DNA from: a virus
DNA length: 64,000 nt
Strand: one strand, 5' to 3'
UHGV virus genome: UHGV-0293664
In this document: piece by piece, positions 2,097 through 63,538 of the stretch
How positions within the stretch are numbered: the stretch's first letter is position 1
How the letters are laid out: each line of letters starts with the position of its first letter
Notes under the pieces: model-generated
Databases searched by the model: none
Told to the model about the DNA's origin: nothing
Seen by the model: the letters and a program-made list of their open reading frames with translations, nothing else
Position numbers and translations under genes: made by a program

Positions 2097-2295
2097 GGAG
2101 CGCTTAATGAACAATCTGGTAGCAAAGAACTGTAATAGGTTTAACAAGTCTGCGATTCACACTGACAGGAAAAAGAGCTGGTCTCCTGACATCGACGATG
2201 AGCTTGAGAGTTACTTTGAAGACCTGGTCACTAATGCAGATGAGATTGCGATTAAAGAATACGCAGACAGGCGAGATAAGGCCGGAATCTGTTGA
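2086..2295 (+). CDS. hypothetical small protein
   Basis: 69-aa ORF whose start overlaps the stop of the upstream gene (translational coupling). Confidence 0.35.
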   Translation: MNAEERLMNNLVAKNCNRFNKSAIHTDRKKSWSPDIDDELESYFEDLVTNADEIAIKEYADRRDKAGIC

Positions 2296-2371
2296 CAAAA
2301 ATAATCTTACCTGATAAGATCTGCAATATGATGTGATACAATTTTAACTTACGAGGTCTACAGGTAATGTT

Positions 2372-2614
2372 ATGTTTAAGGTTAAGCTCGTTTTTCGTTC
2401 CATGAATGAGGATTATTTAGAAGATGAAGGTGAATTTCGTGCACTAGATGATGCAATAGATTTTGCCAACGACTTAGCTTGTATGAATACTGGTTATGGG
2501 TTATGCTGTTGGGATGGTGGTGTTCAGATTGGCGATAGCAAGATCTTCTACTTCTACCCAGAGCCGGATAACAAACAAATTAAGTATGTTTTATTTATTT
2601 GTGCTTTACAATGA
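2372..2614 (+). CDS. hypothetical small protein
   Basis: 80-aa ORF; TTGACA at 2292-2297 upstream suggests a promoter. Confidence 0.35.
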   Translation: MFKVKLVFRSMNEDYLEDEGEFRALDDAIDFANDLACMNTGYGLCCWDGGVQIGDSKIFYFYPEPDNKQIKYVLFICALQ

Positions 2615-2639
2615 GGTTGTTTTCGTGTATCATGATGAA

Positions 2640-2900
2640 TATCCAATTTAAAGATGAATTTGATGGCTTTATCTCCGGATGCTTTGAAACAGGGTTCGGA
2701 GAAGACTGAGTTCCCCTTAGAGGGCTTGATAGTGCACCACACTCAAAATGGTAGGGGCAGCCAGCACATGACGATGTGACCCCAGCCAACCTGTAATAAG
2801 GTCGAGCCCAAGTGCGGTAATGGGTATAGCTGGTAACCCACTTGTTGGGTCTTGTTGGTCCAGGACGCTGGGCAAGTCGCAGGGAACACCACCCTGCGGC
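2640..2900. other. second GC-rich non-coding island, candidate structured RNA
   Basis: High G+C; four overlapping minus-strand ORFs of about 62-64 aa in different frames and no credible coding frame. Confidence 0.3.
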
Positions 2901-2904
2901 GAAC

Positions 2905-2933
2905 TTGACAATCAGTATTTGCTATGATAAAAT
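2905..2933 (+). promoter_or_regulatory. sigma70-type promoter TTGACA-N17-TAAAAT
   Basis: TTGACA 2905-2910, 17-nt spacer, TAAAAT 2928-2933. Confidence 0.65.
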
Positions 2934-2938
2934 CCACC

Positions 2939-2950
2939 TATCACGTGATA
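2939..2950. promoter_or_regulatory. perfect 12-bp palindrome TATCACGTGATA, putative operator
   Basis: Self-complementary sequence at the predicted transcription start, between the -10 element and the RBS of CDS 2962..3300. Confidence 0.5.
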
Positions 2951-2961
2951 ATGGAGGAAAC

Positions 2962-3300
2962 ATGGCGGATACAACTAAAAAGCGTCGCCGTAGAGGCAGA
3001 CCTCTGAAAGAGGAGTCCAACGCCATTCAGCTAGAGAAGAACATCCTTGATATGAAGGAATCTTTTATAGCGATGGTTCCAGAAGCTCACAAAGTTTTAA
3101 GAGAGCTGATGTTGGACCCGAAAACCAAACAAAATATTCGTCAAAGCATTGCAGAGTATGTTCTTGATAAGGCAGAACGAATGCAGGAAGAATATGATGA
3201 GATGTTTGGTGAAGAGGAAGAGGTGGTAGTGGAAGAGGCTGAAAAACCAGCACCCTTTATGCCATTTACCACAGAAATACAGCCTGTTGGCAATAGTTAA
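2962..3300 (+). CDS. basic/acidic small protein with KKRRRRGRP motif, putative nucleic-acid-binding regulator
   Basis: ATG at 2962 after RBS GGAGGA; Arg/Lys patch at N-terminus, acidic C-terminus; the track ORF 2842..3300 was trimmed because its upstream part covers the promoter. Confidence 0.5.
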   Translation: MADTTKKRRRRGRPLKEESNAIQLEKNILDMKESFIAMVPEAHKVLRELMLDPKTKQNIRQSIAEYVLDKAERMQEEYDEMFGEEEEVVVEEAEKPAPFMPFTTEIQPVGNS

Positions 3301-4259: not shown

Positions 4260-4336
4260 CTCCGCGTAGCTCAGCTTGGTAGAGCGCCTGATTTGGGATC
4301 AGGAGGTCGAGTGTTCGAATCACTCCGTGGAGACCA
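4260..4336 (+). tRNA. tRNA-Pro (anticodon TGG)
   Basis: Acceptor ctccgcg/cgtggag, D-arm gctc-agcttggtag-agcg, anticodon stem cctga/tcagg with loop tttggga (G37), T-arm gagtg-ttcgaat-cactc, encoded CCA. Confidence 0.75.
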
Positions 4337-4383
4337 CTTTCAGTTATACTTTAAACATATACAAACAAAAGGAACCTTTAAAA

Positions 4384-4653
4384 ATGTATACACTTAAAAT
4401 TGTAGAGCGTGTAAATCCAACCCATACCGTAGATTTTCGTGACGATTTCAATCCTCTGGCTGTAAATCTTCGAGAGTCATATCATGAACTCAGCTGCGAT
4501 GCAGTGGTGGTCTTTTTTGAAGACAACTCTGAAGGGGCGGTAGCTTGTGTTGTTGATAGTGAGCAGAAGTTTTATATTTACAGAGATGTAGATGCATACT
4601 TGATGAATGAAAATGCAGTTACTGTTAGAATCATCCACCGAGTGCCTCGATAA
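4384..4653 (+). CDS. hypothetical small protein
   Basis: ATG at 4384 after RBS-like AAAGGAA; the longer track ORF 4276..4653 overlaps tRNA-Pro and was trimmed. Confidence 0.4.
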   Translation: MYTLKIVERVNPTHTVDFRDDFNPLAVNLRESYHELSCDAVVVFFEDNSEGAVACVVDSEQKFYIYRDVDAYLMNENAVTVRIIHRVPR

Positions 4654-6749: not shown

Positions 6750-7871
6750 ACGCAGTTCGAATGGGAGCAGATAGACTATCTGATGTCTCGTCTGCGATCT
6801 CAGTCAAAGTATCCATCAAGAATGGTTATCAGCTGTAACCCCGATTCAGAACACATGCTTGCCAAACTGGTTAGGTGGTGGTTGGACGATGAAGGGTATC
6901 CAGATCCGGAGAAATGCGGTAAGAAAAGATATTTTATCCGACGCGACGGTGAATTTATCTGGGGAGACTCTAAAGAAGAGTTGATAGAGAAATACACCAC
7001 GGTTAACGGACTGGGTGTAGAGATCAAGCCGAGACCGTTGTCATTCTCGTTTATAGGCGCAACAATCTTCGATAATCCTGTCTGTTTGAGAGACAACCCA
7101 GAATACCTTGCTTTCCTTGAAGGTCTACCCGAGCTTGAAAAAGCTCAGCTTCTTCATGGCAACTGGTTTGCCAAACCTGAGGGTGCGAACTATTTCCAAA
7201 GATCTTTCCTTCGTGATGCCGATAGAGTACCACTTGGATCAGTATCTTGCAGGGCATGGGATAAAGCTGGAACTGAAAGAACTTCAGGTAATAAATTCCC
7301 TGACTTTACCGCCAGTGTTAAGGTAAGTAAAGATAGCGACGGCTTTTATTACCTGTCCGGTTATTATTGTCCTGAGAACGTGGATGACGGGAGGTATTCC
7401 ACAGGTCTGGAAGGTAAGTTCTGTAAAAAGGCTGGTGAACGAGATGTGATCATCAGGAAACAGGCACAGTTTGATGGTGATGATTGTATAATCGTATTCT
7501 CTGTGGACCCCGGTCAGGCAGGTAAGAGTGAGTTCTTAACTTCCTCCAGATCCTTACTCGCCGAAGGGTTTAGGGTTGAAGAAGACCCAATGCCTTCCAA
7601 CAAATCTAAACTAACAAGGTTCTCACCTTTTGCCAATCTTGCCCAACAAGGAATGGTGAGGATTGTAAAATCCAGTTTTCATCCTGATACTCTGGAAGCA
7701 TTTCTGACTGAACTTGAAAAATTCAACGGGGAAAGATCAACATTTAACAGAAAAGACGACTGGGCCGACTGTGTAGCTTCTGCGATTAATTTCCTGGAGA
7801 AAGAGGAGGTAGCACTTCCTTGTGTTATTCCATCAATCTCATCACCTTCTATGTTCAAGCGTTTTATCTAA
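6750..7871 (+). CDS. terL: terminase large subunit, exon 2 (coupling and nuclease C-terminal part)
   Basis: Frame open from 6747; proposed junction gives ...MVCFDEG|TQFEWEQIDYLMSRLR...; SRMVISCNPDSEH coupling-like motif, acidic nuclease-like motifs FSVDPGQAGK and DDWADCVASAINF. Confidence 0.7.
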   Translation, partial: TQFEWEQIDYLMSRLRSQSKYPSRMVISCNPDSEHMLAKLVRWWLDDEGYPDPEKCGKKRYFIRRDGEFIWGDSKEELIEKYTTVNGLGVEIKPRPLSFSFIGATIFDNPVCLRDNPEYLAFLEGLPELEKAQLLHGNWFAKPEGANYFQRSFLRDADRVPLGSVSCRAWDKAGTERTSGNKFPDFTASVKVSKDSDGFYYLSGYYCPENVDDGRYSTGLEGKFCKKAGERDVIIRKQAQFDGDDCIIVFSVDPGQAGKSEFLTSSRSLLAEGFRVEEDPMPSNKSKLTRFSPFANLAQQGMVRIVKSSFHPDTLEAFLTELEKFNGERSTFNRKDDWADCVASAINFLEKEEVALPCVIPSISSPSMFKRFI

Positions 7872-7874
7872 GTG

Positions 7875-7903
7875 TTGCCAATCTTGATCAGATGTGGTAC
7901 AAT
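7875..7903 (+). promoter_or_regulatory. sigma70-type promoter with extended -10 (TTGCCA-N17-TGgTACAAT)
   Basis: TTGCCA 7875-7880; TG at 7895-7896; TACAAT 7898-7903. Confidence 0.5.
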
Positions 7904-7919
7904 AGAGTAATTGGAGATA

Positions 7920-7946
7920 ATAGCCCTCTGATGAGGGCTATTTTGT
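7920..7946 (+). terminator. hairpin plus T-tract just downstream of the promoter (possible attenuator)
   Basis: atagccctc-tgatg-agggctat followed by tttgtt, about 20 nt downstream of the -10 and upstream of the portal RBS. Confidence 0.4.
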
Positions 7947-7971
7947 TATACTGTTTTGAGGGGTAAAGCTT

Positions 7972-9528
7972 GTGTCCAAAAAGAACCGCAGGAAACACAA
8001 CGCCACAGCCAAAACTGTGAATAAATCTGGGAACGCAGGCGCACCAACTCATAATGTTCGTATGAGTGAGATCGGTTCTGGCGCACTTTCCCAAATTATG
8101 GCAGAATCGCAATCTATGATGGTTGAGGAATTGCGTTGGCCTCAGCTGATTGCCACCGTGGAGACTATGAAATGTGATTCCACAGTTGCTACTGCCTTAG
8201 ATACAAAATATGTTTTCATCACGAAAGCATTCAATGATTTTAAGATCCTTTATAATGTTAAAAGTGAAGACTCTAAGAAAGCTGCAGAGCTTATAGAGTA
8301 TTCTTTGCGTAATTTGGCAAACCAACAAACTCTTCGAGATATCGCAAGAAGCGCAGCTACCTTTAACGAGTATGGTTTTTCACTGTTTGAGAAAGTATAC
8401 CGCAGAGAGAAAGAAGGTAAATATGCCGGGATGCTTCTTATTGATAAAATTGCATTCCGACCTCAGGCCAGCTTGTCCAGATCAGAGCCGTTTGTTTTTG
8501 ACAAGAATAGTAGAACACTGACAGGTATTTATCAGTCACCTAATGCATTTCTAAACACTCAGAATGCACGCTGGGCTGGACCTCTTGCTGCAATGCCTTC
8601 AAAAGGCTTTAATGAGCCTGAAATTTTCATCCCTGCTAAAAAGCTTATGCTCATGACCCTGTCAGGAACAGAATCTAACCCTGCAGGTGTATCACCAATG
8701 ATAGGTTGCTACAGATCTTTCCGTGAGAAAGTTCTGATTGAAAACCTTGAGGTTGTTGGCTGTTCCAAAGACCTTGGTGGTGTGCTTGAGCTGAAAATTC
8801 CTTCCAATATTTTGAACAAGGCCAGCATTGACCCGAATTCAATGGAAGGGAGAATGGTTGCAGACCTTATGCTTGACGCAGCAAACGCCCATAGTGGTGA
8901 GCAAAGTTTCTTTATACTTCCGTCTGATAGAGATAAGTCTGGTAAAGAGCTTTACTCCATGACCCTGAAGGGGGTTGACGGTATGGGTAAGCAGTATTCC
9001 ACTAAAGATTTGATTGATGCCCGTAAGAAGGCGATTCTTGACCGTTTCGGTGCTGGCTTTATTAACCTTGGTAACGATAACGTCGGATCTTTCTCTCTGT
9101 CTGAGTCAAAACAGTCTATCCATGGTCATTTTGTTCAGCGTGATATAGATATTATCACTGAGGCCTTCAATAAAGATCTTATCCCACAGCTTCTGGCATT
9201 GAATGGTATCATCCTTGAAGATGATGATATGCCTAAACTGAAACCTGGTCTGATTGAAGAGGTGGACATGGAGAGCTTCTCCAAGTTTGTCCAGAGGATC
9301 GGTGCTGTAGGTTACTTGCCAAAAACTCCTGCAGTAATTAATAAGATTCTTGAAGTAGGCGGGTTTGATGAAAGATTTGACGAGGACATGGATCAGGAAG
9401 AGCTGATGAAGCTCTTGGGCCAGGACATTAGTAGGGCTGGTGATGGAATGGCTGCAGGATCCACTGGCAACGGCACTTCTAAGATGTCATCAACCAGAGA
9501 TAATTCCATATCCAACATGGAAAATTAA
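7972..9528 (+). CDS. portal protein
   Basis: 518-aa ORF (GTG start after RBS GAGGGG) directly downstream of terminase; size and position typical of portal; no motif check possible. Confidence 0.55.
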   Translation: MSKKNRRKHNATAKTVNKSGNAGAPTHNVRMSEIGSGALSQIMAESQSMMVEELRWPQLIATVETMKCDSTVATALDTKYVFITKAFNDFKILYNVKSEDSKKAAELIEYSLRNLANQQTLRDIARSAATFNEYGFSLFEKVYRREKEGKYAGMLLIDKIAFRPQASLSRSEPFVFDKNSRTLTGIYQSPNAFLNTQNARWAGPLAAMPSKGFNEPEIFIPAKKLMLMTLSGTESNPAGVSPMIGCYRSFREKVLIENLEVVGCSKDLGGVLELKIPSNILNKASIDPNSMEGRMVADLMLDAANAHSGEQSFFILPSDRDKSGKELYSMTLKGVDGMGKQYSTKDLIDARKKAILDRFGAGFINLGNDNVGSFSLSESKQSIHGHFVQRDIDIITEAFNKDLIPQLLALNGIILEDDDMPKLKPGLIEEVDMESFSKFVQRIGAVGYLPKTPAVINKILEVGGFDERFDEDMDQEELMKLLGQDISRAGDGMAAGSTGNGTSKMSSTRDNSISNMEN

Positions 9529-52404: not shown

Positions 52405-52442
52405 GAAAATAAAAAGGGGCCGTTTGGCCCCTTTCTTTTTAT
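52405..52442. terminator. bidirectional intrinsic terminator between convergent transcription units
   Basis: A-tract, stem ggggcc-gttt-ggcccc, T-tract; lies between the plus-strand stop (52398) and the minus-strand stop (52445). Confidence 0.7.
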
Positions 52443-54917: not shown

Positions 54918-55484
54918 TTATTCAAACTGCAATAGTAAATCCACCACCGCGCTAGGTCTGTCAACAAATTCCCCTGGTCCACATGCCCATAAAGGGTATC
55001 CGTCTACATACCGCCAAATCCAACCTGCAGTGTGGAGTTCGAGCAGGGCAGTACCGTCCTTACTGTCAACCACTCTTTCCCACAGTGTCGGGCAGCGAAG
55101 CTTGAGGATCGGATCCCCTCCCTTATACCCGTCCATGTAGATACCCATTGCAAAGTTCAGCATCATCTTTTTGTGCACCGATCTCTTACTGAGAGTGCTC
55201 ATCACTTCCTCTTTGTGAATGTTTGTAAGCTTCTCCTTGGCTATCCGCAGATCGTTGCAACCATTGTTCAGCAAATCTTCTAGACACCTGATCCGAAGGT
55301 CGTGAATGTCTTTGTCGTGTACCGTTGGCACAGGGTCGTAGCGGTATAGCACTGTTGATACAAGGTTGCTCGGGTGTGGGTCTGACAGCAACCCATAACC
55401 CCAATACTCTTCTGTATCTGAAAGGACAAGACACCCAATGTCTCTGTCAAGCTTTCCTGTGTTGTAAGCCACATTGACCGCCAT
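54918..55484 (-). CDS. hypothetical protein
   Basis: 188-aa ORF. Confidence 0.35.
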   Translation of the reverse strand: MAVNVAYNTGKLDRDIGCLVLSDTEEYWGYGLLSDPHPSNLVSTVLYRYDPVPTVHDKDIHDLRIRCLEDLLNNGCNDLRIAKEKLTNIHKEEVMSTLSKRSVHKKMMLNFAMGIYMDGYKGGDPILKLRCPTLWERVVDSKDGTALLELHTAGWIWRYVDGYPLWACGPGEFVDRPSAVVDLLLQFE

Positions 55485-55486
55485 GA

Positions 55487-55732
55487 CTATAGCTCCACTA
55501 GCAAAGTGCTTTCAAAGTGCCGTTCATGCAGACCGTTGTAAGGGACCACCTCCACAACGCCATCACGAACATATGGGGTCATCATAGTGGTATAATCTCC
55601 AAACGGGTTGGTATTGTCACTAACCACAACCACCTTCTGCCCTTCCTTGGCAGAGTGCCAAATAGATCTGCACTTCATCAGGTGTTCGAGAGCTCCAGGT
55701 AAAATTTTGTTACGTTCTTTACGGGTCTTCAT
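55487..55732 (-). CDS. hypothetical small protein
   Basis: 81-aa ORF. Confidence 0.35.
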   Translation of the reverse strand: MKTRKERNKILPGALEHLMKCRSIWHSAKEGQKVVVVSDNTNPFGDYTTMMTPYVRDGVVEVVPYNGLHERHFESTLLVEL

Positions 55733-56178
55733 AACAGGTATAGCTCCTTATGAAAGTGATCTTTTAATTTCTCACTGAGAAACTTCTTGATACCTTCCTC
55801 TAAAGTGTTTTCGATGTAGTCCAGCTTAACTGCTTCGATAGACATATCATAGATCGCCAGCTCTAAGCTGTCAAGTCCCATCATAGCATGAACCATAAGA
55901 TTTTCATCTTCAGATACATTCAGGGGACTTCCTATAACATCTGGAGGCAGAATAGTTTCCCAATTATTCTGGGTGGTAGTTCTCCCCCCCTCTGCTTTAC
56001 GGCGCAGTTCGAATGTGTTCTTAGTATAGAACACTTCATAAGAAACGATACGACTGTCGCTCTCATAATAAACGAAGTTCAGGTAGGAGCCTAGCCGCAG
56101 TCGGCAAACTTCCACCCCAAACCATTGTTTCTTATAAGAATTCAGGCTAATGCTGTCGCATTCACGTTTGCTCAACAC
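55729..56178 (-). CDS. hypothetical protein
   Basis: 149-aa ORF overlapping the downstream start. Confidence 0.35.
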   Translation of the reverse strand: MLSKRECDSISLNSYKKQWFGVEVCRLRLGSYLNFVYYESDSRIVSYEVFYTKNTFELRRKAEGGRTTTQNNWETILPPDVIGSPLNVSEDENLMVHAMMGLDSLELAIYDMSIEAVKLDYIENTLEEGIKKFLSEKLKDHFHKELYLL

Positions 56179-56194: not shown

Positions 56195-56428
56195 TTAATC
56201 TTCGTAAATCAGGATTTCTGCTTTAGGTTTTCGTGCTTTCAGATCCAGCTCTATCCAATGCACCATGGCTGTTTCAAGAAAAACAGCCTGGATGCATCCG
56301 TCCTCAGCGTGCCCTACCAACATAACAAGATCTTCACCTTCGTCATCTGCATCACGAACATACAGAATCTCTCCAGATTCAAAGTCTTTCACAACCTGAT
56401 TGCTGGATAATTTACGAATTTTTGCCAT
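56195..56428 (-). CDS. small protein, possible distant member of the 87-aa paralog family
   Basis: 77-aa ORF immediately downstream of the three paralogs, similar size and acidic character. Confidence 0.35.
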   Translation of the reverse strand: MAKIRKLSSNQVVKDFESGEILYVRDADDEGEDLVMLVGHAEDGCIQAVFLETAMVHWIELDLKARKPKAEILIYED

Positions 56429-56429
56429 A

Positions 56430-56693
56430 TCAGAAACCCTCTAAAAAGCTCTTGTAGAAAACAATCTCAGTGTCCACACCAGTCACAATCTTGTCGTTCC
56501 TGATTTCATCGGTAAGATAGGTGTCAAAACGCAGAACCTGTGTGGTGTTGTCACACATCCACTCAGCTGTGACCATTGCGAAAATCTTAGCATCTTCATT
56601 ATCCGGTGTAAATGTTACCACCTCACCGCATTTAAACTTTTCGATAGGTTGAGTGTTAGCTTTCGGCTCTGCGATAGTGATTTTTGTGGTCAT
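56430..56693 (-). CDS. 87-aa paralog family member 3
   Basis: Identical length (87 aa) and shared pattern with the two upstream copies (cGeVV...VTgvDteI). Confidence 0.45.
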   Translation of the reverse strand: MTTKITIAEPKANTQPIEKFKCGEVVTFTPDNEDAKIFAMVTAEWMCDNTTQVLRFDTYLTDEIRNDKIVTGVDTEIVFYKSFLEGF

Positions 56694-56956
56694 TATTCTC
56701 CTCCTTGTTTTGAATAGCTTGTCTCTCCAAGGATGGTAATTTTGGTATCAAGCTCTGTAACTTTCATGTTTGGTGGCAGATCGTACAACTCCTTATTTTC
56801 TAAATCGAACCCCCACACACAATGTTCTCCTGTTTTGACAATCATAACTATGTTTTGAATGCCGTCTCCGTCGCAACTTACCACGGTCCCACACGGAAAA
56901 CTATCTGCACGCTTTTTGTTCTTCACCTTAGAATTGAATACAATGCTAGTAGCCAT
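56693..56956 (-). CDS. 87-aa paralog family member 2
   Basis: MATSIVFNSKVKNKK..GTVV..GFDL..VTELDTKITILGE aligns with member 1; start overlaps the upstream stop. Confidence 0.5.
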   Translation of the reverse strand: MATSIVFNSKVKNKKRADSFPCGTVVSCDGDGIQNIVMIVKTGEHCVWGFDLENKELYDLPPNMKVTELDTKITILGETSYSKQGGE

Positions 56957-57219
56957 TATTGTTCCTCCACCATAACTTCGCCAAGAATTTCTATGCAGGC
57001 ATCCATTTCTGTAACAACCAAGGTGTGAGGTAGTTCTGCAAACACCTTTCTGAACAGGTCAAATACCCCAACATATATGTTTGCAGGATGTGATTTTACA
57101 ACAAGTGCTGTATTCACATCCCCAAGTTCATCAACAAACATCACCACAGTGCCTGGAGCTACTGAAGACAGATACTTCTTAGTTTTACGGTTTGATGCAA
57201 ATTTTAACTCTGTTGCCAT
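56956..57219 (-). CDS. 87-aa paralog family member 1
   Basis: MATELKFASNRKTKK..GTVV..GVFDL..VTEMDACIEILGE aligns with member 2. Confidence 0.5.
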   Translation of the reverse strand: MATELKFASNRKTKKYLSSVAPGTVVMFVDELGDVNTALVVKSHPANIYVGVFDLFRKVFAELPHTLVVTEMDACIEILGEVMVEEQ

Positions 57220-57234
57220 AAATAATCTCCTCCT

Positions 57235-58716
57235 TTATTTAGCGTACTCGATTAATTCCACAGTTTTCCCAAAGCTCGGGATATAATTTTTATTATACCC
57301 CTCGGTGAGAACCCATAAAGTATCGTACTTTTTCCACTTGTTGTCAACAGCCTTTTGTTCAAAGTTATGCTCAAAGTATAGGTCGGTCAGGACGATGACA
57401 TCTTTTGCATTCGGTATATTGGCATCCAGATACTCGAACACGCAAGCAGCTGTTGTGCCCCATGTTGAGTGGACCTCATAGTTGATCATCTCATCTATGT
57501 TACCGCGAGTGTATACTTTAACCTCTCCAACCTCAGTTGACCAACAGAACATTGTAACCTTAAACTCTTTATACAGATTGCACAATCCGGTGATTTCATT
57601 GAACATTTTCTTTAAAGTTCTTTGAGAGATCGAGCCAGAAACGTCTAAAGCCACCACAATATCTATGGTGTTTTCCGGATTACGACCAGGAACAATAACG
57701 TGCTGGTTCTTGTTTATAGCCCCAACTTTTCGCATTGTGCTGGTCAAAGACCCAGATCGGCGACCAGGTTTTCTGTAGGTCAGTTCAGCCTTTCGTTTAG
57801 ACAACATGCGTTGCTTAATGATATCTATATAGTTGATTACAGGCTTGCCTCTGTTCTTGACAAACTCACGCACCGCCTCAGGGCAACGACCTCCGGAAGC
57901 TTGCATTGCTGCCTCCAGCATGTCACCAGAATCCTGCATGGCCTGATCTTTATCAGATTGGCTGATTACAGGTTGTGGCCGATCATACCCCATAGCCTTC
58001 CCAAGATCATCGCTGGTGCCACCGTTCCCGCTCATGTGATCATCGGTTTGTCGCTTATCTCCTTGGGAGTTATCACCTTTACCGCTCTTACTTTTACCGT
58101 TATTTTGATCTCTTTGCCTATCAAGAACTGCATAGACGTTCTCAGCAATCCATCCATGAAACTTCATGTCGCAGTAGCAGCTGGCTAAGAAACCAAAAGG
58201 CTTACCTTTTACGAACGTAGTGCTTTTCCCCTTCGGGAAGAAAACACAAGGGGGCTTGCTAAAGTCAACCACAAGACCTGTGTTGATAACGTGATCACAA
58301 GCAATATTGAACAGTTCCGGCTCAAAGCTTTTGCCACGGACCAGGTGATCACAGATAATATGCCCCACCTCATGTGACAGAAGGAAAGCCACCTCTTTCA
58401 CAGATTTGGGGGAATAGAAAACTTCAGCCATCTCAAACTGCTCTCCAGTTAGAGAGGCCTTGAGAATAGCCTTGCGTTCATCAGCCAACCCCATAATGAA
58501 CTCAGGACTGTAATAGATGCGTTTATGGTCGGTTGCCATGGTGGAGCACCATGTGTGGTTTTCTACGAACTGTAACCCTGACAGCAGTGTGCCATAAAAC
58601 GGCAGCTTTTCAAGGAGATACATACGTGCAGCCTGTAACATTCTCAGGGCATCATCTTTCTGTGAGGCAATGATTTCTGAACTTCTGCTATCCATTAAAA
58701 CTCCAGAAGGGGCCAT
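57235..58716 (-). CDS. VWA-domain protein with N-terminal HExxH metallopeptidase-like domain
   Basis: HEVGH zinc-binding motif at N-terminus; MIDAS motif VVALDVSGSIS in the C-terminal half. Confidence 0.6.
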   Translation of the reverse strand: MAPSGVLMDSRSSEIIASQKDDALRMLQAARMYLLEKLPFYGTLLSGLQFVENHTWCSTMATDHKRIYYSPEFIMGLADERKAILKASLTGEQFEMAEVFYSPKSVKEVAFLLSHEVGHIICDHLVRGKSFEPELFNIACDHVINTGLVVDFSKPPCVFFPKGKSTTFVKGKPFGFLASCYCDMKFHGWIAENVYAVLDRQRDQNNGKSKSGKGDNSQGDKRQTDDHMSGNGGTSDDLGKAMGYDRPQPVISQSDKDQAMQDSGDMLEAAMQASGGRCPEAVREFVKNRGKPVINYIDIIKQRMLSKRKAELTYRKPGRRSGSLTSTMRKVGAINKNQHVIVPGRNPENTIDIVVALDVSGSISQRTLKKMFNEITGLCNLYKEFKVTMFCWSTEVGEVKVYTRGNIDEMINYEVHSTWGTTAACVFEYLDANIPNAKDVIVLTDLYFEHNFEQKAVDNKWKKYDTLWVLTEGYNKNYIPSFGKTVELIEYAK

Positions 58717-58728
58717 TGGCCCCTGTTA

Positions 58729-59718
58729 TTATTTAACGTGTTTGAAAATACCTGCCAACTCGGTCATTGTCATGCGGGTGGTCTTCATAAGATCTGTCAT
58801 AGCTTTCTCCATAATTGGGGATACTACCATAAAGTTTCCTTTAGTGAAACCTTTATTCCAGTCGGTCACCAACAGTGGTTTAAGTCCAGCTCCGAGACGT
58901 TCACCAGTTAAAGCACAACATTTTCGAATGTATGTGCTCTTAAACTGGCTGAATGACAGATCCACTTTCATACCTGCATCGTAGAACGTCTGGCAATAGA
59001 AAGTGTAAGCTTTGGCAATCTCAACATCGTCAGGCAGTGCAGGAACCTCTTCTGTAAGCTCTTCTTCGACCCCTTGAGGCTCTTTTTCCTCTTCGTAAGC
59101 CTGTTGCGTCATCTCTTCAATCTCCTCTACTACAGGCTCGTTTACAATGTCAGAAATGTGCTTGTTGGCTCCACGATTAGCCATGAAGTTTTTAAAATCC
59201 TGCATTGGTGACATATCTTCCTCCCATTCTTCGTCAAAGAGTGCCAGTTTATCCTCTTCCGTTCCATATTGCAAGATGAAATCTTCAAAAGTGTAATCAC
59301 CTTTCAATTTCTCCATACGCTCTTCGCTCAGGTGGAGCATCATCTGCTGGACAATTTTTCGATCAGTTTTGTCTTTAATCAAGACTGCGGTCTTTTTATC
59401 TACCAGACAGTCCTTTAGAGAGTTGCATCTCAACCCTACCACACAACAGTTATCAACCGCATAAGGGCCTTCATCATCTATCCGCTCTAGAGATGGGTAG
59501 AAAGGATTTCCCAGTCCGTTTTCATCCGTGTGCATGTCGAAAGGTATAAGGGTATAGTCGCATACTCCATCTCCTAAAAGTTTTTTACCAAATAGGAGAT
59601 ATTCTTCCCATGACAGGTTGAACTCTATATCTCGTTTCCGTGCATTATTCTGTTTGCGTCTGTATTTTTTGAGCAAGCGCTCTAACTCTTCTGGTGTATA
59701 ATATTTTTCAAGATTCAT
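58729..59718 (-). CDS. hypothetical protein with HNH-like cysteine motifs
   Basis: Start trimmed to the ATG at 59718 because the track start 59784 lies upstream of the predicted minus-strand promoter; motifs ERIDDEGPYAVDNCCVVGLRCNSLK and a second Cys-containing segment near the C-terminus. Confidence 0.35.
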   Translation of the reverse strand: MNLEKYYTPEELERLLKKYRRKQNNARKRDIEFNLSWEEYLLFGKKLLGDGVCDYTLIPFDMHTDENGLGNPFYPSLERIDDEGPYAVDNCCVVGLRCNSLKDCLVDKKTAVLIKDKTDRKIVQQMMLHLSEERMEKLKGDYTFEDFILQYGTEEDKLALFDEEWEEDMSPMQDFKNFMANRGANKHISDIVNEPVVEEIEEMTQQAYEEEKEPQGVEEELTEEVPALPDDVEIAKAYTFYCQTFYDAGMKVDLSFSQFKSTYIRKCCALTGERLGAGLKPLLVTDWNKGFTKGNFMVVSPIMEKAMTDLMKTTRMTMTELAGIFKHVK

Positions 59719-59749: not shown

Positions 59750-59779
59750 ATCTTACCAAGGGCCTGGGAAGATGTCAAC
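59750..59779 (-). promoter_or_regulatory. minus-strand sigma70-type promoter (TTGACA-N18-TAAGAT on the complement)
   Basis: Plus-strand tgtcaa 59774-59779 and atctta 59750-59755. Confidence 0.45.
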
Positions 59780-62051: not shown

Positions 62052-62354
62052 GTGGCAAGGATGCCACTTAAAAGAGTAATAAGCATGTTATACCAGAAAC
62101 ACAAACTTTGTGCAGAAAAAGAGTTAAATTTTGACAAAGTTATCCACAGATATTGTTATGGGAAAACCGGAAGACAACTAAGAAGGTGTACCCCAACATT
62201 CTTTCACCCCAGTAGACGGCTAAGTCCTGAAGAAGCAACAGCAGAAAGGGTTGCATACAACTGGGAAGTTGTGTACGATATTGACAGATCCGATGTGGCA
62301 TCTGTTTTGGAAAACTTTGAAAACACTTACACACAAGTAGAGGACTTTTACTAA
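62052..62354 (+). CDS. hypothetical protein
   Basis: 100-aa ORF. Confidence 0.35.
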   Translation: MARMPLKRVISMLYQKHKLCAEKELNFDKVIHRYCYGKTGRQLRRCTPTFFHPSRRLSPEEATAERVAYNWEVVYDIDRSDVASVLENFENTYTQVEDFY

Positions 62355-63538
62355 TGTCAAGAAACGTATTTGAAAGTGGTCAAATCACTGTCCGTGAGTT
62401 GCCAGCTATCATTCAGTTTGCCCAGCGTCATAACCGATCTGTCCTGATTTTAGGACCAATGGGCGTGGGGAAGAGCCAGGTGATGAAGCAGATTGCCGAT
62501 AATATGTTCGGTGAGCGAGATGACAACCTGGTTGACGTGCGACTGTCAGATAAAGATCCTGCCGACTTATCTGGGCTACCTATCCCTGTAGAAGCGGATG
62601 GAACTACACGTACAGTGTTTGCAATTCCAGAATTCTGGCCTGCAGATCCAGACTGGAGCGGGATTATCTTTCTGGATGAGCTTACTCATGCAGATAACTA
62701 TCTACAAAAGGTTGCAATGCAGATTATGCTCGACCACAAGTGCGGCACCTATGCATTCCCTAAAGGCTCTGTTTTTGTGGCTGCGGGTAACCGTTCTACA
62801 GATGGTGCGGTTCTTTCGGCGCTCGAAGCCCCTCTGGCTAACCGTTTTATCATTGTAGAAGTTACAAGCAATGCAGAGGTGTTTATTGAGGACTACGCAT
62901 TCCTTAATGGGGTGCATTCCTCTGTAATTGGGTATCTGAAAAGAGTTCCATCAGCTATCGATAATTATGAGGCTATGGCTGAGATTAATTGTCCATCTTT
63001 TGCCACACCGCGATCTTGGGTTGCTGCATCTGACATCTTGCACGATTTTGACAGCGGTATTATTTCTGACGCTATGGCCCGTGTTCTTCTGCAAGGTGCT
63101 ATTGGTCACACTGCAGCGGTAGAGATCTGGACCTACCACACCAAGAAACGCAACTTACCGGAAATCGGTCGGATTATGGCAGGGGGTTGCAAAGAATACG
63201 TAGGTCCTAAACAGCCAGACATTTTGTGGATTCTTGGATCTGAAGGTTGTATCGCTATTCGTAATATGATGGAAAATGCAAGTATCTCCGACGAAGATCT
63301 TGTCAGCTGCGTGGCAAACTTCCTCGATTTCCTTTGGGAAAACTTCAAAGACGAGAACCGAGATTTTGTATTCTCAGTCTTTATGGCGATGATGAAACCT
63401 AATGCCTTAGGAAATGCCTTGCTTATCGGTAAAGGGCGTGACAAGATTGTTGCTCAGCTGATCAAAGCATACCCAAACCTGATGAAGATTGTAAAAGAGT
63501 TTGGTGAAGAGTTTAGCGCCATTTTGGCTAAAGCTTAA
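62354..63538 (+). CDS. MoxR-like AAA+ ATPase (CobS-like)
   Basis: Walker A GPMGVGKS, Walker B IIFLDELTHA, sensor-like AAGNRS. Confidence 0.65.
   Translation: MSRNVFESGQITVRELPAIIQFAQRHNRSVLILGPMGVGKSQVMKQIADNMFGERDDNLVDVRLSDKDPADLSGLPIPVEADGTTRTVFAIPEFWPADPDWSGIIFLDELTHADNYLQKVAMQIMLDHKCGTYAFPKGSVFVAAGNRSTDGAVLSALEAPLANRFIIVEVTSNAEVFIEDYAFLNGVHSSVIGYLKRVPSAIDNYEAMAEINCPSFATPRSWVAASDILHDFDSGIISDAMARVLLQGAIGHTAAVEIWTYHTKKRNLPEIGRIMAGGCKEYVGPKQPDILWILGSEGCIAIRNMMENASISDEDLVSCVANFLDFLWENFKDENRDFVFSVFMAMMKPNALGNALLIGKGRDKIVAQLIKAYPNLMKIVKEFGEEFSAILAKA

Follow-up and report, generated by a model that had tools for sequence, protein, structure and literature searches.

A four-member family of small predicted beta-barrel genes, essentially confined to Vequintavirus, in the minus-strand operon of an rV5-like phage

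The viral genome UHGV-0293664 was analysed as a window of 64,000 nucleotides, with the focus on an array of four consecutive minus-strand genes, here designated c1 to c4 (Table 1). The window derives from an rV5-like Vequintavirus, a myophage of E. coli. The four genes form a genus-restricted family of small acidic proteins that are predicted to be beta-barrels, and they are tightly packed in an operon with a predicted sigma-70-type promoter. The front half of the array is exchangeable between related phages, and constraint acts on the back half. In a sister phage the C-type gene, which can occupy the place of c1 and c2, is dispensable in the laboratory, as are the orthologs of c3 and c4. The genes had previously been catalogued as hypothetical proteins; the unification of the family, its predicted fold, its duplication history, the cassette polymorphism and the contrast in selection are new.

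Homology and predicted fold of the array proteins

The initial annotation of this region described three tandem minus-strand genes of 264 nt (87 aa) with stop/start overlaps, which was confirmed both in the list of open reading frames (ORFs) and in the sequence. One base is shared between the stop and start codons of c1/c2 and of c2/c3 (TAATG), the c4 start lies one base past the c3 stop (TGAtATG), and each of the four genes is preceded by a Shine-Dalgarno-like GGAGG or GAGGG motif. All four are annotated as coding sequences for a "hypothetical protein" in every deposited relative that was inspected. Since other subtypes of the family span 252-267 nt, the identical length of c3 is partly a coincidence.

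The same annotation had proposed that the three 87-aa copies align along their length. This was correct for c1 and c2, which were 39% identical by BLASTP (E = 9e-14) and had a Smith-Waterman z score of 19.7 relative to shuffled sequences. For c3 the relationship emerged by profile only: BLASTP gave no alignment of c3 with either c1 or c2 (shuffle z = 1.3-4.6), and the pairwise comparisons involving c4 were marginal (shuffle z = 1.2-3.8). In a PHROG search c3 matched phrog_10698 with an E value of only 0.078 and c4 did not match it.

A hidden Markov model (HMM) was built from seven gp014-family subtypes, leaving out c3 and c4, and run on all 408 ORFs of the window (at least 40 aa, six frames). 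The model placed c3 third, at E = 8.3e-7, and c4 fourth, at E = 5.6e-4; the ORF ranked after them had E = 0.36. Alignment with hhalign against the seven-subtype profile gave 91% for c3 (P = 9e-7, 77 columns, end to end) and 61% for c4 (P = 8e-5, 68 columns). With a poorer, three-subtype profile the E values were 4.6e-4 and 0.12, respectively; the signal thus rises with the diversity of the family, as expected for true homology. The ~69 kb of the sister genome Murica that lie beyond the span of the window (501 ORFs) yielded no further members (best E = 0.6), leaving c3 and c4 as the sole extra family matches among ~900 genome ORFs (window plus Murica remainder). It is very unlikely that the two best non-self matches would be adjacent genes on the same strand by chance.

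The statistics therefore supported homology among the copies, unevenly, and they bore out the suggestion that the 77-aa ORF, c4, is a distant relative. As judged from these comparisons, c1 to c4 are best described as four paralogs with the structure 2+1+1 and not 3+1, c4 being the least certain member and the weakest link. The copies are 15-40% identical to one another, and for this reason the duplications are ancient; tandem amplification, as originally suggested, was upheld as regards a tandem paralog family and not as regards recent duplication. Two other candidates, gp018 (81 aa, 55487-55732) and an ORF at 4276-4653, were rejected as extra members (HMM E values of at least 0.06, and 0.78-1.8 with better profiles).

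Structural models were generated with AlphaFold2. The c2 model, based on an alignment restricted to A and B sequences (the subtypes to which c1 and c2 belong), had a predicted local distance difference test score (pLDDT) of 71.6 and a predicted template modelling score (pTM) of 0.59. The c3 model, based on the superfamily alignment, had a pLDDT of 81.1 (76-81 across five models) and a pTM of 0.68. The elements follow one another identically in the two models. A long N-terminal beta segment is followed by a single helical turn (residues 17-19) directly before a conserved F-x-x-G motif (F20/G23), and then by five strands. The fold predicted from these two models is a Tudor/SH3-like five-strand small beta-barrel with an N-terminal beta arm, a result that answers the call for structure prediction made with the initial annotation; the agreement between the models is partly circular, because the c3 alignment included the other subfamilies.

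When the BFVD database was searched with the c3 model, the sole match with E < 1e-3 was an independently modelled protein of 87 aa from Vequintavirus phage nomo (19% identity, TM score 0.75), which at that level of identity is a member of a different subfamily and not a c3 ortholog. The matches also included the C-type protein of Pr121LW and a 78-aa protein of phage naam; the rest, including N4 gp21, were small uncharacterised proteins of phages. N4 gp21, PaP3 ORF65 and dozens of BFVD entries labelled "uncharacterized protein" resemble the array proteins in size (65-95 aa) and barrel fold (TM 0.5-0.7); they are 10-23% identical to them, with E > 1e-3 for all except the Vequintavirus protein, and provide no mechanistic lead. 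The fold also resembles the Tudor/SH3-like barrels of the uL2 C-terminal domain, the PHF19 and SMN Tudor domains, PWWP and the Spt5/NusG KOW domain, as well as the C-terminal Tudor domain of UvrD/PcrA, which binds RNA polymerase.

There was no specific structural or family match for the array barrels. Searches of Pfam, NCBIfam, PADLOC (defence systems) and PDB sequence profiles with the array proteins returned sub-threshold noise only, and no KOW motif or ribosomal L2 signature was matched in Pfam, NCBIfam or the PDB sequence profiles. The array proteins showed neither the aromatic cage and Pfam Tudor, PWWP or chromo match of the Tudor "royal family" nor the N-terminal helix before a five-strand barrel and the ring oligomer of Sm/Hfq-like proteins. 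All four are ~9-10 kDa and acidic (pI 4.5-5.3), and the A and B subtypes carry a basic N-terminal arm. Besides the initiator methionine, the residues invariant across the four families are G23 and one isoleucine; no conserved catalytic-looking residue was found across them.

Distribution, cassette exchange and selection

When 1.84 billion representative proteins were searched exhaustively with a profile built from the four families, 10 matches emerged, nine of which were Vequintavirus-like variants or fragments. P0030, a repetitive, surface-protein-like protein of 408 aa, was rejected as a false positive, its score coming from four repeats. Three word-indexed homolog searches returned near-identical proteins only, and tblastn against 50,697 phage records located the genes in 118 Vequintavirus records only. 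A related-locus search with c3 as the query returned only two viral and two metagenome loci, all with known architectures. The family is essentially confined to the genus Vequintavirus.

In addition to A (c1) and B (c2), the subtypes gathered were C (rV5 gp014), A' and B' from a divergent Vequintavirus contig (L014-L016), C' from short metagenome contigs of 1.7-2.7 kb (L012, L013), and D from a 124-kb contig of a distant relative (L009). The order A-B-c3-c4 was found in the window, 44 records and one further locus (L022); A'-B'-c3-c4 in the divergent contig; and C-c3-c4 in 74 records, including rV5, FV3 and Bas54, and in three further loci (L020, L021, L023). In the distant relative (L009/L010) D stands alone between DUF2201 and a gp017-like gene; the DUF2201 protein of this phage is only ~62% identical, and tblastn detected neither c3 nor c4 there. 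C' likewise stands alone, between HAD-like and gp024-like genes; in L012 the C'-type member (1355-1606) is 62% identical to rV5 gp014 and is flanked by a 211-aa HAD-like gene and the gp024-like gene, with no DUF2201. This location away from DUF2201 indicates that the gene can relocate within the operon.

The comparison of copy number among related phages, proposed at the outset, thus yielded A plus B in 44 of the 118 records, a single C in the other 74, and one copy (D) in the distant relative. The simplest reading of these arrangements is that one ancestral gene behind DUF2201 underwent serial duplication in the Vequintavirus lineage, giving the three or four copies per member of the genus; c3 and c4 would then be older, neofunctionalised copies.

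The front of the array is the variable part. A and B were present, at 90% identity or more for c1, always as a pair (both in 44 records, one alone in none), and the single C-type gene that takes their place in the remaining records, among them rV5 and Bas54, is ~40% identical. Alignment of the window with rV5 by blastn gave 94% identity down to 57205 and 96% identity again from 56704, and the genomes are collinear outside this segment. Both breakpoints fall within conserved gene ends, a short way into the 5' end of c1 and the 3' end of c2. The intervening segment is a clean cassette exchange, in which slots 1 and 2 are filled by A+B, A'+B' or a single C. The possibility that unequal crossover between A and B had produced C as a hybrid was considered and rejected, the segment-wise pattern of identity being unsupportive (Fisher p = 0.73). 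The exchange of A+B for C represents a clean natural allele swap between genomes that are otherwise 94-97% identical, and could reveal a host-range determinant.

Ratios of nonsynonymous to synonymous divergence (dN/dS) were calculated by the Nei-Gojobori method for the window against six relatives. They were 0.008-0.024 for c3, 0-0.11 for c4, 0.07-0.18 for c2 and 0.2-0.45 for c1, the last being imprecise because of the few substitutions. The c3 protein was 93-100% identical across the genus with DNA identities of only 78-94% (including comparisons with L003, L007, L008 and L014); identity was at least 93% in 118 of 118 records, and that of c4 was at least 88% in all of them. Synonymous divergence (dS) in c3 exceeded that of the flanking genes, at 0.59 compared to 0.08-0.12 for rV5 and 1.4 compared to 0.1-0.2 for phita32. 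The reverse pattern was seen against the divergent L014 contig, where c3 and c4 were 98% and 95% identical at the protein level, their neighbours were 34-82% identical and the dS of c3 was far below that of its neighbours. These patterns indicate that the c3-c4 block is a mosaic tile with its own recombinational history and very strong constraint at the protein level. The c3 gene is under extreme purifying selection (dN/dS ~0.01), and few proteins of the operon are as conserved as c3 and c4.

By these measures all four genes are clearly real and selected. It is hardly credible that they are functionless leftovers of duplication or miscalled ORFs: dispensability in the laboratory would suit that explanation, which is contradicted by dN/dS values far below 1 for all four, by the near-invariance of c3 despite saturated synonymous change, by ORFs that are intact in 118 genomes, and by the ribosome-binding sites and confident fold predictions.

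Candidate functions of the array

Published data from saturating transposon mutagenesis (HIDEN-SEQ) are available for Bas54 (MaxBurger, MZ501093), a C-type Vequintavirus (10.1101/2025.11.20.689424). Orthology was checked: bas54_0054 is of the C type (98% identical to rV5 gp014), bas54_0053 corresponds to c3 (98%) and bas54_0052 to c4 (100%). The three genes were classed as non-essential on E. coli K-12, with 17/17, 13/15 and 12/12 TA sites hit, respectively, and the Bas54 DUF2201 and gp017-like genes were likewise non-essential on this host (10.1101/2025.11.20.689424). The near-invariance of c3, combined with this dispensability, singles it out as a gene of importance in natural hosts only.

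The same study compared K-12 with one clinical isolate, the phage carrying C in place of A and B. In that isolate the DUF2201 ortholog was significantly depleted, with a log2 fold change of -2.20 (q = 0.009), a result not discussed in the main text; the values for the gp017-like gene and for the MoxR ATPase bas54_0063 were -2.28 (q = 0.195) and -7.23 (10.1101/2025.11.20.689424). MoxR and bas54_0140 were validated by the authors as being needed against the defence system DS-28 of CFE311 (10.1101/2025.11.20.689424). In Extended Data Table 8 (sheets S6 and S7), the sheet titled "K-12 vs CFE303" has a command line that names the "311" library, and its numbers are identical to those of the next sheet; the CFE303 comparison seems to be absent from the stored table and the data to point to CFE311. 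The anti-DS-28 role of MoxR and the depletion of DUF2201 in the same host suggest that the two act together. In the window, DUF2201 and the MoxR-annotated gene lie in divergent operons ~4 kb apart. The array lies in a conflict-related neighbourhood.

The reading that we favour, with a probability of roughly 0.45, is that the array proteins have no enzymatic activity and bind host or defence macromolecules, with the variable slot tracking something that varies between hosts and c3 and c4 something conserved. The proteins would be made from the onset of infection and would act stoichiometrically, as inhibitors, decoys or adaptors of host macromolecules. The c3 and c4 proteins would be aimed at conserved targets, and the swappable first slots at one that varies from one host strain to another, such as a component of a defence system. 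The arms-race or host-takeover role proposed in the initial annotation fared unevenly: dispensability in Bas54, the cassette-like variation and the validated anti-defence neighbour MoxR are in keeping with it, and the high conservation of c3 and c4, which is not arms-race-like, and the lack of significant depletion in the clinical isolate are not.

Several points weigh against the favoured reading. A housekeeping interaction would explain the extreme conservation of c3 and c4 no less well than host takeover. In the clinical isolate the log2 fold changes were +0.46 for the gp014-type gene, +0.33 for c3 and -1.32 for c4 (p = 0.13, q = 0.68), none of which was significant, and the coverage of the screen was the C type of Bas54, outside which the A and B subtypes of the window fall (10.1101/2025.11.20.689424). 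Redundancy among the paralogs could mask effects in this screen. The circular component of the agreement between the c2 and c3 models also counts here.

A narrower form of the proposal is a "constant plus variable" set of Tudor-like mini-barrel inhibitors, in which c3 and c4 would hit conserved factors and the first slot (A+B, A'+B', C or D) would set strain specificity, possibly by steering DUF2201/MoxR. This form is unlikely. The array as such can be compared with the IPI/IPII/IPIII anti-restriction locus of T-even phages, a polymorphic, hyperplastic accessory locus whose internal proteins bear a capsid-targeting signal and enter the capsid. The array resembles this locus in having small dispensable genes between conserved flanks, alternative cassettes in different isolates and a position in a region rich in host-interaction genes. 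It differs in that there is no homology, in that no such signal is known in the array proteins, and in that two of the four array members are highly conserved and not polymorphic.

An alternative with about the same limited plausibility makes the barrels accessory subunits, adaptors, regulators or substrates of a machine composed of the DUF2201 VWA/metallopeptidase and the MoxR-type AAA+ ATPase, with the variable slot retargeting it. Every full-length lineage that was seen, the distant L009 with its diverged DUF2201 included, has a family member directly downstream of DUF2201. VWA domains are protein-binding modules, and the host in which the DUF2201 ortholog is depleted is also the one for which the anti-defence role of the MoxR ortholog was validated. 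Against this, mutants of the gp014-type gene and of c3 were not depleted in the same screen and those of c4 only weakly and non-significantly, the C' subtype has no DUF2201 beside it (on short contigs), and MoxR is encoded in the opposite operon, 5 kb away.

It is less probable still that the paralogs form a hetero-oligomer of small barrels, similar to Sm/Lsm, whose ligand would be nucleic acid or a host complex; translational coupling would then ensure equal dosage. Small beta-barrels often oligomerise; the one-base overlaps, the uniformly strong ribosome-binding sites and the invariable pairing of A with B would be consistent with such an assembly. It is very improbable that the proteins are virion components of the tail-fibre-rich particle or act in its assembly or as chaperones for it. 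The operon abuts the lateral tail-fibre genes and the downstream gene is labelled "tail protein" in PHROG, but insertions reached saturation in the non-essential C-type, c3 and c4 orthologs, and the array runs opposite to the structural module, following an Srd-like gene and a sigma-70-type promoter. Furthermore, the text of the rV5 paper contains neither "gp14" nor "gp17", a search that extended neither to gp15 and gp16 nor to the mass spectrometry supplement (PMC3606486).

The rV5-like phages are widely used in E. coli phage therapy and biocontrol and about two thirds of their genes are without an assigned function. The array is a modest, well-defined lead and not a surprise; if no phenotype emerges, it will be another small accessory gene cluster.

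Operon setting and annotation of the region

The 3.1-kb stretch around the array is 97-98% identical to ~115 complete rV5-like genomes (including APECc02, Murica, LL12 and BASEL Bas48-59). The array genes correspond to rV5 gp014-016 and to bas54_0054, bas54_0053 and bas54_0052, with c3 and c4 98-100% identical to the rV5 and Bas54 proteins. PHROG treats them as three unrelated families of "unknown function" (phrog_10698, phrog_12861 and phrog_12046), which are joined here as one superfamily with a common predicted fold.

Plus-strand structural genes fill the first ~52 kb of the window. The array sits in a minus-strand operon that runs from ~59.8 kb to a bidirectional terminator, in the order Srd-like gene, DUF2201, c1, c2, c3, c4, gp017-like gene (Table 1). 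In the text of the rV5 paper the corresponding genes are numbered 11-26 and proposed as a single transcription unit, with sigma-70-type promoters pointing both ways between genes 10 and 11 (PMC3606486). Synteny is conserved: DUF2201 directly precedes the family member or members, and the gp017-like gene trails them, in the window, rV5, L014 and the distant L009.

Table 1. Positions of the array genes and of associated features in the window
Feature	Position	Strand	Evidence and remarks
c1, subtype A, 87 aa, 264 nt	56956-57219	-	phrog_10698, E = 2.8e-42, full length; cassette gene 1
c2, subtype B, 87 aa, 264 nt	56693-56956	-	phrog_10698, E = 2.2e-41, full length; cassette gene 2
c3 (rV5 gp015, bas54_0053), 87 aa, 264 nt	56430-56693	-	phrog_12861, 9e-62
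c4 (rV5 gp016, bas54_0052), 77 aa	56195-56428	-	phrog_12046, 5e-55
Replaceable cassette (most of c1 and c2)	56705-57204	-	500 nt, compared to 230 nt (gp014, subtype C) in rV5
gp017-like gene, directly downstream of array	55729-56178	-	phrog_6790
DUF2201 metallopeptidase/VWA-like gene, directly upstream of array	57235-58716	-	Pfam DUF2201_N 4e-28, DUF2201 3.5e-11
Srd-like gene, first of operon	58729-59706	-	Record annotations ("anti-sigma factor"); rV5 paper text (PMC3606486)
Sigma-70-type promoter-like site	59750-59778	-	Scan; TTGACA-17-TAAGAT with TG
Bidirectional intrinsic terminator, operon end	52411-52436	-	Scan; matches rV5 terminators annotated between genes 26 and 27
MoxR-type AAA+ ATPase equivalent	62354-63538	opposite operon	MoxR annotation in Bas50; Pfam gives only a weak AAA match

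By blastn alignment the promoter-like site coincides exactly with the annotated rV5 promoter P11, which is itself a prediction. The literature search found no infection transcriptome for Vequintavirus, and the text of the rV5 paper gives predictions only (PMC3606486). A paper on anthracyclines in which Vequintaviruses are mentioned does not deal with the array genes. The initial annotation called the genes early; the predicted promoter is the one feature that points that way, and early expression is accordingly putative. Two promoter-like sites inside the array (56955-56984 and 56584-56612) were disregarded because the number of promoter hits in the region (27) was not above the shuffled expectation (20.6 ± 4.7). 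A GC-rich hairpin, AGGGGCC-ATT-GGCCCCT, is located between the Srd-like and DUF2201 genes (58708-58724); the annotation of Murica labels it a terminator. It may serve as an attenuator within the operon, in which case the array and the other downstream genes may be transcribed at a level unlike that of the first gene.

The DUF2201 start annotated in relatives matches position 58695 of the window. DUF2201 is a single 486-aa gene in the window and other relatives; in the rV5 reference (L003 2757-4218, gp012/gp013) it is split into 416 aa and 70 aa in another frame, which is a frameshift or a sequencing error in the reference. Several product names in this region look unfounded. The RefSeq names "HNH endonuclease", on both the Srd-like and DUF2201 genes, and "tail protein", on gp017, were inherited from PHROGs; the c1 ortholog is named "excinuclease ATPase subunit" in phage B9-1, and the Srd-like gene "anti-termination" in other records. 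Sixteen GenBank genomes (MG0656xx) described as "UNVERIFIED Campylobacter phage" are ~97% identical to E. coli Vequintaviruses at the array locus, and their assignment to a Campylobacter host looks doubtful.

Two further observations concern the distant relative L009. A TnpB-like gene (OrfB_IS605/Cas12f1-like_TNB; 2119-3258) is located between its divergent operons, just upstream of the Srd-like gene. Two tandem gp019-like genes (6938-7531 and 7577-8128) are 26-29% identical to the gene at 54918-55484 of the window, where it is single, and the pair represents a second tandem duplication in the array operon.

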